A program made the position numbers and the translations under genes. Below are positions 10,057 to 12,258 of a stretch of 12,258 bases of DNA, in pieces; position 1 is the stretch's first letter; the number at the start of each line of letters is the position of its first letter. Below the pieces are notes generated by a model. That model had not been told where the DNA came from and searched no databases. It saw only the letters and a list, made by a program, of their open reading frames with translations. The DNA lies in NCBI GenBank assembly GCA_014728035.1, contig WJMJ01000044.1, positions 1-12,258 on the forward strand. The letters are read 5' to 3'. This DNA comes from Promethearchaeota archaeon. GTDB taxonomy: Archaea > Asgardarchaeota > Thorarchaeia > Thorarchaeales > Thorarchaeaceae.

Positions 10057-12258
10057 TTATCTGTCTATGACTGCACCACAGAATGGACATTCACAGCATT
10101 CAGCCAACTTCAGTTTTTGGACAATTTCCATTGGCAATGTTGCATTGCATTGCGGGCAAAGCCAAGTGCTGAGCCTCTTTGAAATCTCATCGAGAGCTGG
10201 AAGTATCATACTCTCATCTTCTCCAATCATCTCGAGTTTGCAGACAGCACCTTTCTCTCCAGGTGTTCCAATTATAGTGACCTGAATGCCTAGGTTCTTT
10301 CCTGTGTACTTGCCCTTGGCCCAACCAGTAATCTCCCGTTCAACTTTCCCTGCTTTCTCCGTCTGGTGGTCACCCACTTGGAAGAAATTGGATTCTTTTA
10401 GCGCCTGAAGTGTCTTAGTGTGCATCTCTTTGGGAGTCCAGTCATCCACTTTTACTGTAAGGTCTGTCCTGTCCAGTTCGGTCAATTGAATTCCAAACTC
10501 TTCAGGTGTGATACTCTCAGGTGTCAAGAGATCACAGACTGCTCGTATCTCGTAGGGCTCTGTGCTTGTTGAGTGGAGCGTTCCTTTATGGTCCACAAAA
10601 GACACAGTGGCAGAAATCAACCCTTTCACACAATCTTGTGTGGGTGCAAACTCGTAACTTGGGCTTCTGAAACCTTCTGGGTCTATCTTTGGAACCACCT
10701 TTGTGATTTCTCCATACAGTTTCAAGCTGTCTTTTGGATACGATACCAGTGTGATTGTGACATCCGTTATCACTGAAGAGGACTCGTTCGCAACTTTTAC
10801 TTTGTATCGTAGTCTGTTGCCAACGAACTCTGCACCTCGTAAGACTTTGACTTGAGTTTCAGGAACTTCTACGCCCTGTGATACATGTAGATCGTCTGAG
10901 GTTTCAAGTTCTCTCTGATCATACCATTTCTTACCAGTATAACCTCCAACAAGAGCTATAATCAGAATAGCACTTACAATTCCTGTGGCTATTAACACAT
11001 CCATGACACCTGCTATGAACAGGTCCTCAACAACTTGCACTATTACTGTACTCGATGCTACATTGCCTTGCCAATCTTCTACGAGTATCGTGAAATTATG
11101 AAAGCCGAGTTCCAAACCCTCTAACGCATCTTCAATCTCTACGAAATCTCCGTCAATCTCTTGATCGTCAAGGAACAATTGTTCGTCTATGTAAAGGGAG
11201 TATCTTCGAAGGTCGTTCTCCGTGATATCCCAACGTAATGTGTTATTCTCACTGCCTGCTTCGATTCGGAAGGTCAGTGGATGAGTTATCTGGGGTGGTG
11301 TTTGATCTTTGTATCTCTTCATTAACTTATGATTGCCCGTATCGCTATAGAATGAGAGAATCAGATTGTCATAGTTGTCCATTCCGAAGGTTTGAACGTC
11401 TATTGATGATTGATTAATTGCTATCGTTCTTTCTAACGAGCCCGATGGACTAGTCCAATACTCTACGTACTCACCTGAAGAACTACTTGTGATGGCATAT
11501 ACTCTCCCATCAGTATCAATCTCCAGCCCCTTAGGCCATGGCGTGTCAGATGTGTCACGTTGACGGATAATCCAATCTCTATCGCCAGACGAGTCGTATT
11601 TTTCAATGAGAATCTCTTGGTCTTCGGTGTCCAATCTTGTGTATCCTAGCAGGTAGATATACCCATCTGGACCTATCTCCATACTATTTAAGAAATTGTT
11701 ATGGTCAGCTCCAACCTGTTCTTCCCATAAGAATCCCCCATCATTCTGTAATCTAGAGAGATACGTATCTGTATAGACATCCCCATCGCTCCCGGAAACT
11801 TTTCTTCCCATGAAATATACGTTCTCTTCCGAGTCAAAACAGATATCCACATCTGTGATGAAATGCGTTGAAGTCATGGTATAACTCCAAATGTCTGTCC
11901 CTTGCTCTGTAAACTTGGTCACTACACCCTCCCCGGGATTCTCTGCATATACGACAAATTGATTGTCTTCCGTAGCATCTATCGCATGAAATACCCCCTC
12001 CTCATAGATATTACTCCATAATTCCGTACCATCGTCCGCATCGAAACATAGAATGAACTTGATCAAAGTCGAATCAATTTCACGTGTTCCTACAATGATA
12101 ATTTTACCTGATGGTAGCCATGTCATATCTCTCGGCTGTTCGGATGAACCATTTCCCCATGTCACCTGCCACTGAAATATTCCGGACTCTGAATATTTTT
12201 TCAGATATACATCCCCATCACCTGTACCTGTCCATCCACTAATGTAGATATTTTGTGA
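10057..12258 (-). CDS. Large single-pass membrane protein, 5'-truncated: beta-propeller repeats, Ig-like domain, TM helix, adaptin-appendage-like cytoplasmic region, zinc ribbon
   Basis: The frame stays open upstream of the track's GTG at 12165 to the window edge (SQNIYISGWTGTGDGDVYLKKYSESGIFQWQV), so the real start is outside the window. SBBP-like repeats (DGYIYLLG...ILIEKYDSSGDRDW). Ig-like unit DQTPPQITHP...GFHNFTILVEDWQGNVASSTVIVQV. TM helix VLIATGIVSAILIIALVGGY followed by KK. C-terminal CPQC...CPFC. Confidence 0.88.
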   Translation of the reverse strand, partial: SQNIYISGWTGTGDGDVYLKKYSESGIFQWQVTWGNGSSEQPRDMTWLPSGKIIIVGTREIDSTLIKFILCFDADDGTELWSNIYEEGVFHAIDATEDNQFVVYAENPGEGVVTKFTEQGTDIWSYTMTSTHFITDVDICFDSEENVYFMGRKVSGSDGDVYTDTYLSRLQNDGGFLWEEQVGADHNNFLNSMEIGPDGYIYLLGYTRLDTEDQEILIEKYDSSGDRDWIIRQRDTSDTPWPKGLEIDTDGRVYAITSSSSGEYVEYWTSPSGSLERTIAINQSSIDVQTFGMDNYDNLILSFYSDTGNHKLMKRYKDQTPPQITHPLTFRIEAGSENNTLRWDITENDLRRYSLYIDEQLFLDDQEIDGDFVEIEDALEGLELGFHNFTILVEDWQGNVASSTVIVQVVEDLFIAGVMDVLIATGIVSAILIIALVGGYTGKKWYDQRELETSDDLHVSQGVEVPETQVKVLRGAEFVGNRLRYKVKVANESSSVITDVTITLVSYPKDSLKLYGEITKVVPKIDPEGFRSPSYEFAPTQDCVKGLISATVSFVDHKGTLHSTSTEPYEIRAVCDLLTPESITPEEFGIQLTELDRTDLTVKVDDWTPKEMHTKTLQALKESNFFQVGDHQTEKAGKVEREITGWAKGKYTGKNLGIQVTIIGTPGEKGAVCKLEMIGEDESMILPALDEISKRLSTWLCPQCNATLPMEIVQKLKLAECCECPFCGAVIDR

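Follow-up and report, generated by a model that had tools for sequence, protein, structure and literature searches.

An adaptin/COP-type appendage predicted as the inner tail of a surface protein in a Thorarchaeia genome

The gene and its domain order

The stretch of DNA considered here, referred to as the window, is the whole of contig WJMJ01000044.1 (12,258 bases), from the 4.3 Mb assembly GCA_014728035.1 of a Promethearchaeota archaeon of the Thorarchaeaceae, a genome that is 97.9% complete. One end of it is occupied by a minus-strand gene for a single-pass membrane protein, in which a beta-propeller, an immunoglobulin (Ig)-like domain and one transmembrane helix are followed by a C-terminal module of 265 aa, and this module is confidently predicted, from its structural model, to be a genuine appendage (or ear) of the adaptin/COP type, that of beta-COP being the closest. 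The reading frame leaves the contig end, so that the start and the signal peptide are outside the visible DNA; residues are numbered from the contig end (frame 12258..10057, minus strand), and the stop codon is at 10059-10057. The features are:

10057..12258 (-), the gene itself, for a protein crossing the membrane once; 733 of its codons visible, the 5' end lying off the contig
11305..12258 (-), extracellular beta-propeller, PQQ/SBBP-like, its first part absent; visible residues 1-318
11026..11304 (-), extracellular Ig-like domain; residues 319-411
10936..11007 (-), transmembrane helix; about residues 418-441, from hydropathy and the polybasic stop-transfer of homologs
10855..10935 (-), KK and acidic juxtamembrane linker; residues 442-468, from sequence
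10540..10854 (-), first subdomain of the appendage, an Ig-like beta-sandwich; residues 469-573 (105 aa), holding the conserved C543
10471..10539 (-), hinge and first platform helix; residues 574-596, with conserved C575, P580 and F588, and L592
10165..10470 (-), remainder of the platform subdomain (TBP-like, helix-grip); residues 597-698, matching the AP-4 beta platform
10060..10164 (-), C4 zinc ribbon; residues 699-733, with C701, C704, C724 and C727 (10158-10078)

All the motifs quoted in an earlier, sequence-only reading of this DNA, together with the all-beta segment of about 105 aa, the linker, the alpha/beta segment and the CxxC ribbon that it described, are found in this frame. The transmembrane helix reaches a Kyte-Doolittle peak of 2.49 over 21 residues, the two lysines (residues 443-444) are followed by an acidic linker of 26 residues before the beta-sandwich, which that reading had passed over, and the hinge reads DLLTPESITPEEF (residues 576-588; 10533-10495). 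The missing 5' end is absent from all other contigs of the assembly; a homolog with the same ectodomain and tail (P0011) has about 92 extra residues with an N-terminal hydrophobic segment. Misassembly or chance fusion was considered and rejected, as P0011/L089 has the same order of propeller, Ig, transmembrane helix, ear and ribbon, with 24-26% ectodomain identity.

As for the ectodomain, the propeller is the only part of the whole protein that Pfam recognizes (PQQ_2, E 3.5e-7). The model of the ectodomain is all-beta (predicted local distance difference test, pLDDT, 75.9), its Foldseek matches are generic propellers, headed by CylK (E 5e-13), none of them function-specific, and the Ig-like domain is of a type common to other surface proteins of the same genome. 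The propeller would be of a generic adhesion or glycan-binding type.

The fold of the tail

The AlphaFold2 model of the tail, made from an alignment of 105 homologs, has a pLDDT of 88.5, and its predicted secondary structure runs as nine strands, a short strand, a helix, a strand, a helix, four strands, a helix and the ribbon. In a Foldseek search with this model, places 1 to 15 are all taken by solved appendages, with BBS9 after them: first a chain of the coat protein complex I (COPI) leaf (9qpq_H, E 1.7e-11, TM-score 0.68), then the alpha subunit of adaptor protein complex 2 (AP-2; E 4.5e-11), beta2 and gamma-COP. Residues 722-953 of this chain H we take to be beta-COP, from the residue numbering and from the Atlas beta-COP models, which match the tail with a TM-score of 0.69. 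An independent structure search of 48,161 chains is led by AP-2 alpha (Z 15.4), beta2 (14.2), gamma-COP (13.2) and the AP-4 beta platform (13.0), while direct re-alignment gives Z 18.1 to 9qpq_H residues 722-953 (3.2 A over 224 residues, 15% identity), 15.9 to AP-2 alpha, 14.5 to beta2, 14.0 to gamma-COP and 12.0 to BBS9. Language-model features likewise indicate the ears of alpha-adaptin and beta-COP (0.76-0.79), a score to be read as a lead only.

Both subdomains are found. Model residues 5-106 are all-beta and align with Z 10-18 to appendages and GAE domains, the platform matches that of AP-4 beta (2mj7; Z 13.0, 2.6 A, 113 residues), and whole-appendage alignments cover model residues 1-236. 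Thus the ear and platform proposed in the sequence-only reading are borne out by the structure searches. A generic Ig domain of the CARDB/DUF11 kind with no platform, which that reading had named as refuting it, is rejected: DUF11 matches are weak, in 9 of 105 members, and the platform is present.

At the level of sequence, identity to solved appendages is 10-15%; no Pfam appendage model passes its cut-off, whether in the ear-tail protein or in the leading families found for the 105 members, the best match seen being Alpha_adaptinC2 (E 0.005, in L041), and neither phmmer nor a profile search of the PDB sequences with the module detects the relationship. A search for Alpha_adaptin_C across 151 Asgard genomes gave nothing useful, and no control gave signal. 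Homology to appendages would follow from the two subdomains sharing their order and geometry. The tail is an adaptin ear in predicted structure, yet it is not a subunit of an AP or COPI complex: where the large subunits of these have a helical trunk (Adaptin_N) and a hinge, the N-terminal part here is a propeller, an Ig domain and a transmembrane helix.

Orientation in the membrane

Among 54 single-pass homologs, the 15 residues beside the transmembrane helix have on average 4.6 K/R on the side of the module and 0.24 on the other, and the module is on the K/R-rich side in 51 of them. No transmembrane helix is present in 43 of 201 carriers, some of which are fragments, so that the counts of architecture classes are approximate; they are so also because the hydropathy classifier is crude, the ear-tail protein itself being called multi-pass through the last strand of its Ig domain. 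From the K/R bias of the homologs, the carriers devoid of a helix and three soluble paralogs in the genome, it is strongly indicated that the ear module faces the cytoplasm behind a single transmembrane helix, as the sequence-only reading had supposed; an extracellular location, the other outcome that would have refuted that reading, is rejected from the K/R bias in the single-pass homologs. The arrangement is that of a type I membrane protein, with the helix and KK visible here and the N-terminal hydrophobic segment in homologs, the signal peptide being off the contig in this gene.

One ear on many proteins

Many membrane proteins that are otherwise unrelated share this ear as a reusable inner tail. 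Its close homologs number 74, with Thorarchaeota among their names; a profile search finds it in 1,401 clusters at 50% identity (E<=0.001), and a single query finds it in four other Asgard families and, within the family of this genome, in 25 of 26 genomes, named members including Loki-, Hel- and Njordarchaeota. With these numbers, and with solved appendages heading the structure searches, the observation is not due to chance. The survey of N-terminal architectures that had been suggested finds surface, multi-pass and soluble proteins: ectodomains of beta-helix, propeller or Ig type of up to 2,800 residues, multi-pass parts, short anchors, and LRR, TPR, HEAT, WD40 and PCI scaffolds, while many carriers have one or two transmembrane helices and nearly no ectodomain. 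Across unrelated N-termini the module keeps 45-61% identity, and on a module tree of 161 tips the architecture class changes 58 times, against a mean of 84 when shuffled. The architectures are interleaved on this tree; therefore, re-attachment of the tail has happened many times over.

Several genomes have tandem arrays of ear genes, including small membrane-anchored copies, and two tandem ear-ribbon modules occur within single proteins (P0076-P0079, P0054, L029). The three soluble paralogs of the same genome have the orders zinc-repeat-ear-ribbon, propeller-ear-coil and HEAT-ear. A TPR protein (L059; G000 C126:36036-36695) ends in a zinc ribbon of the same type (E 8.6e-8) with no ear; therefore, the ribbon also moves alone.

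The membrane fusion is common but dispensable. In a congeneric genome the orthologous position holds a 344-base 3' remnant with 88% nucleotide identity, and 2 kb upstream lies an ear-tailed paralog of 2,701 residues; some well-assembled relatives have soluble ear copies only, and one relative (G005, 98% complete) has no ear match. In that congeneric locus (L046:12700-15700, syntenic with window 9770-10360) a methyltransferase-like gene on the opposite strand precedes the remnant, which is followed by what appears, by eye, to be a broken fragment of an IS607-type resolvase.

Conserved surface features

The platforms of eukaryotic appendages bind their ligands through an FxxxW pocket (PMC2262067). 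In the present family, which conserves other motifs of its own, F588 is conserved in 82%, and in 1 of 158 members the residue four positions on is a tryptophan; the residue here is L592 (FxxxL), its equivalence to the eukaryotic tryptophan being assigned by position in the helix. In the absence of FxxxW, binding of the eukaryotic type, to DPF or FxDxF motifs, is not expected. Yeast Sec21p also deviates at this pocket, having FxxxF (PMC2262067).

Two cysteines, C543 and C575 (10630-10632 and 10534-10536, minus strand), are both kept in 145 of 155 members, both lost in 7 and singly lost in 3. By sequence position the pair falls at the junction of sandwich and platform, and may be a disulfide or bind a metal. 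The four cysteines of the ribbon are 97-100% conserved among the homologs that bear it.

Gene neighbourhoods

The soluble HEAT-ear paralog (L051:5294-6547; G000 C44:13293-14546) has a WD40 gene on one side and two small GTPase genes on the other, within a broadly syntenic block; each of the 17 Thorarchaeota loci fetched has at least one small GTPase neighbour, and the WD40 gene and one GTPase are missing from some of them. Soluble propeller-ear proteins (L049:5903-8671, from G000 C99; P0132; P0150) have a domain order like that of BBS2/7/9: P0132 has a weak match to the BBS7 propeller (E 1e-5, below the cut-off), and the C99 type has a conserved C-terminal coil of 135 aa with a hydrophobic tip.

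Downstream, the ear-tail gene is next to a membrane histidine kinase (8471-9733, minus strand; HisKA, HATPase_c), no response regulator being encoded in the window, and this to a TPR protein (6431-8383, minus strand) with a C-terminal domain that looks, by eye, longin/roadblock-like and with orthologs in 16 of 60 relatives. That these three genes form a coat module was considered and rejected: among the 60 searched, the adjacency exists only in the congeneric genome. Other genes of the contig encode an M23 peptidase (1621-2754, minus strand), an ATC-hydrolase-like protein (2916-3833, minus strand), a membrane-anchored Lcl_C domain protein (3940-5307, minus strand), a eukaryote-like ribosomal protein S26e (5487-5771, plus strand; Pfam E 2e-18), which like the names of the close homologs points to an Asgard source, a winged-helix protein with two transmembrane helices (322-810, plus strand; DUF7347) and an exported protein of 186 aa with no Pfam match (898-1458, plus strand).

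What the tail may do

Summed over the explanations discussed below, the module is likely to be a docking handle for some shared cytosolic partner. [quoted passage not shown] The steps are: (i) the module folds as a sandwich plus platform, according to the model and the searches; (ii) it is, by strong indication, cytoplasmic, behind the single transmembrane helix; (iii) time and again it has been joined to ectodomains of no relation to one another, to multi-pass proteins and to soluble scaffolds; (iv) a shared cytosolic partner would be bound, as with eukaryotic ears, via surfaces other than the FxxxW pocket, given that the module is strongly conserved while the N-termini are exchanged freely; (v) and finally, the partner network would most likely lead to ESCRT-II/III and Vps4, marking the carrier for clustering, budding, shedding or turnover. 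In other words, cargo and adaptor would be one chain, with no need for an AP heterotetramer.

The last step would follow from the fact that other Asgard members hold Vps28-C or a Vps22-like winged helix after the platform. This slot is exchangeable: it is the ribbon in most members, and otherwise Vps28-C, the winged helix or a coil. VPS28 passes the Pfam cut-off after the ear in two members of Lokiarchaeal type (L034, L035), EAP30 matches the winged helix after the ear of P0170 (E 1.5e-9), and a profile made from six winged-helix tails, four of them on membrane proteins, has this genome's Vps22 as its top match (E 1.4e-10), a result favored by the inclusion of P0170, itself an EAP30 match. Thus, it is ESCRT parts, and not an AP/COPI coat, that the fusions in this family point to. 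Vps22 and two Snf7 proteins are encoded in the genome, and Vps25- and Vps4-like genes, read by eye, are neighbours in it; in methanogens, ear proteins are encoded within ESCRT loci (10.1101/2024.02.06.579148). A soluble protein of 803 aa (L064; G000 C37:135961-138369) ends in a Vps22/EAP30-like double winged helix and is outside the ESCRT locus.

Several observations weigh against the ESCRT-related proposal, besides the inclusion of P0170 just mentioned. An ESCRT domain is lacking in the tail protein and its three paralogs in this genome, a search of the genome for Vps28-C found none, and no ESCRT gene occurs in any of the ear loci examined. By comparison with archaeal appendages tied to ESCRT, this gene has neither the ESCRT locus nor a fusion to Vps28-C or to a steadiness box, fusion to ESCRT domains being found in other members of the family. 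The membrane form of the ear is patchy among relatives. The ribbon has weak generic ribbon matches in Pfam, Vps36-NZF-N being no better than others. Ubiquitin E2 reaches its cut-off in 0 of 41 Thorarchaeia genomes, against 5 of 5 other Asgard genomes; therefore, a ubiquitin-reading role of the ribbon is unlikely here. A bolder version, which we regard as unlikely, is that in Thorarchaeota, where ESCRT-II/III and Vps4 are kept but no ubiquitin E2 shows, the ear-ribbon tail would be a fused sorting tag replacing ubiquitination and separate adaptors, with the soluble ears drawing any membrane protein that gains the tail into a proto-coat or ESCRT budding site. If so, it would be a present-day example of the stage that preceded the separation of cargo, adaptor ear and AP/COPI core into different proteins.

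The strongest of the other explanations, although on balance rather unlikely, is that of a receptor signalling tail, in which the ectodomains would sense ligands, and ear and ribbon would relay to a small GTPase, a longin/roadblock protein or a kinase, the membrane not being moved. Receptor families are usually built in this way, with one conserved inner domain and many variable sensors, P0172, P0177 and P0180 have a C-terminus that by eye is longin-like (in Pfam only SLM4, E 0.044), and the constant GTPase neighbour of the HEAT-ear paralog is as this would have it. However, that neighbourhood belongs to a generally syntenic block, the kinase and TPR-longin genes adjoin only within the genus, the module holds no catalytic or phospho-acceptor domain, and many carriers are almost devoid of an ectodomain.

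In eukaryotes, ears bind accessory proteins and cargo is bound by the core. That the ear here would recruit an AP/COPI-like proto-coat of propeller, solenoid, longin and small GTPase, budding vesicles together with the bound substrate, is not likely, since the fusion inverts this usual logic of ear and core, the pocket has FxxxL in place of FxxxW, and the sigma (PF01217), mu (PF00928) and Adaptin_N trunk (PF01602) families were not found in the genome, in searches with no working and hence no informative control. The missing WD40 gene and GTPase at some HEAT-ear loci, and the relative of 98% completeness with no ear, are also contrary to it. On its side are the beta-COP appendage as nearest structure, the HEAT-ear and propeller-ear-coil paralogs, which mimic the domain orders of adaptins and BBS proteins, and the WD40 gene and two small GTPases flanking the HEAT-ear gene. 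The sequence-only reading had proposed a cargo receptor and a coat-recruiting ear in one polypeptide; the ear fused to a surface protein stands, while the binding of a cargo by the ectodomain is putative, and the recruitment of a coat is disfavored by FxxxL, by the AP/COPI core not found in those searches and by the ESCRT-type fusions.

A localisation or anchoring tail, which would tie surface proteins to an actin or tubulin cytoskeleton, or cluster them in patches or protrusions with no vesicle sorting, is quite unlikely: large adhesin-like ectodomains of up to 2,800 residues would suit it, and the tandem arrays of small anchored copies and the two-ear proteins suggest avidity, but no fusion to an actin-binding domain was seen in 30 members scanned, and no ear is known to bind filaments directly. 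Finally, that the tail is a largely neutral passenger, a stable domain spread by recombination among arrays of surface genes and functional only in soluble core paralogs, would agree with the congeneric 3' remnant and with the well-assembled relatives that have soluble copies only, but is very unlikely, as the membrane copies keep their 45-61% module identity and invariant motifs, and the ear-tail frame is intact in this genome.

Comparison with known systems

Of the known appendages, that of beta-COP (9qpq_H, 5nzr_B; Pfam Coatamer_beta_C and Coatomer_b_Cpla) has the same two subdomains in the same order and in nearly the same relative orientation; in contrast, the tail has no helical trunk, no coatomer partners were found for it, and FxxxL replaces FxxxW, while a zinc ribbon, a conserved cysteine pair and the fusion to a transmembrane protein are added. 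The ears of AP-2 alpha and beta2 and of gamma-COP and the AP-4 beta platform (1w80, 3hs8, 1e42, 1pzd, 2mj7) share the sandwich and platform (Z 13-16 over 205-213 residues), with a larger difference in hinge angle (root-mean-square deviation 4-6 A), and compared with them the tail is devoid of the platform tryptophan and of any Pfam appendage match. In BBS9, representing the BBS2/7/9 type, GAE and platform match more weakly (Z 12.0, 3.6 A, 190 residues), and 13 of 105 family members have weak GAE_BBS1 matches; however, BBS2/7/9 are each one soluble cytosolic chain of propeller, GAE, platform, hairpin and C-terminal helices, whereas here the propeller is outside the cell, a transmembrane helix stands between it and the ear, and a zinc ribbon is at the end.

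How the coats of AP, COPI and BBSome type arose is still debated. An Asgard family of ears that is large and well-folding, nearest to beta-COP, offers small, soluble and easily expressed domains for structures and partner searches, and lets one ask what ears bound before coats, and whether service to ESCRT came first.

The sequence-only reading implied that a prokaryotic appendage would be new, which goes too far. Alpha and beta2 appendage domains have been reported in Asgard genomes (Eme et al. 2023, PMC10307638), and Makarova et al. 2024 (10.1101/2024.02.06.579148) describe Asgard proteins with Vps28-C, appendage, longin and PCI domains as well as complete appendages in the ESCRT loci of methanogens, one with a zinc ribbon (WP_013898571.1) and one of GOLD-TM-appendage form (WP_013898578.1; Meth_adaptin). 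Thorarchaeota, or an ear recurring as the tail of surface proteins that are unrelated, are not mentioned there; the main text of two recent structure-based Asgard surveys has no mention of appendages, and no description of the ear-ribbon tail family of Thorarchaeota was found, in a literature coverage that is incomplete. With the archaeal appendages of Makarova et al. the present tail shares the IG and TBP subdomains, the ribbon form and the ectodomain-TM-ear form, the likeness to the methanogen proteins being one of published domain composition, and this module has sequence homologs in the PCI-ear-Vps28-C proteins of Lokiarchaeal type; this gene differs in lying outside an ESCRT locus and in having no ESCRT domain. 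Thus, ears in archaea were already known, and what is added here is how far the family reaches and that it is used as an inner, exchangeable tail.

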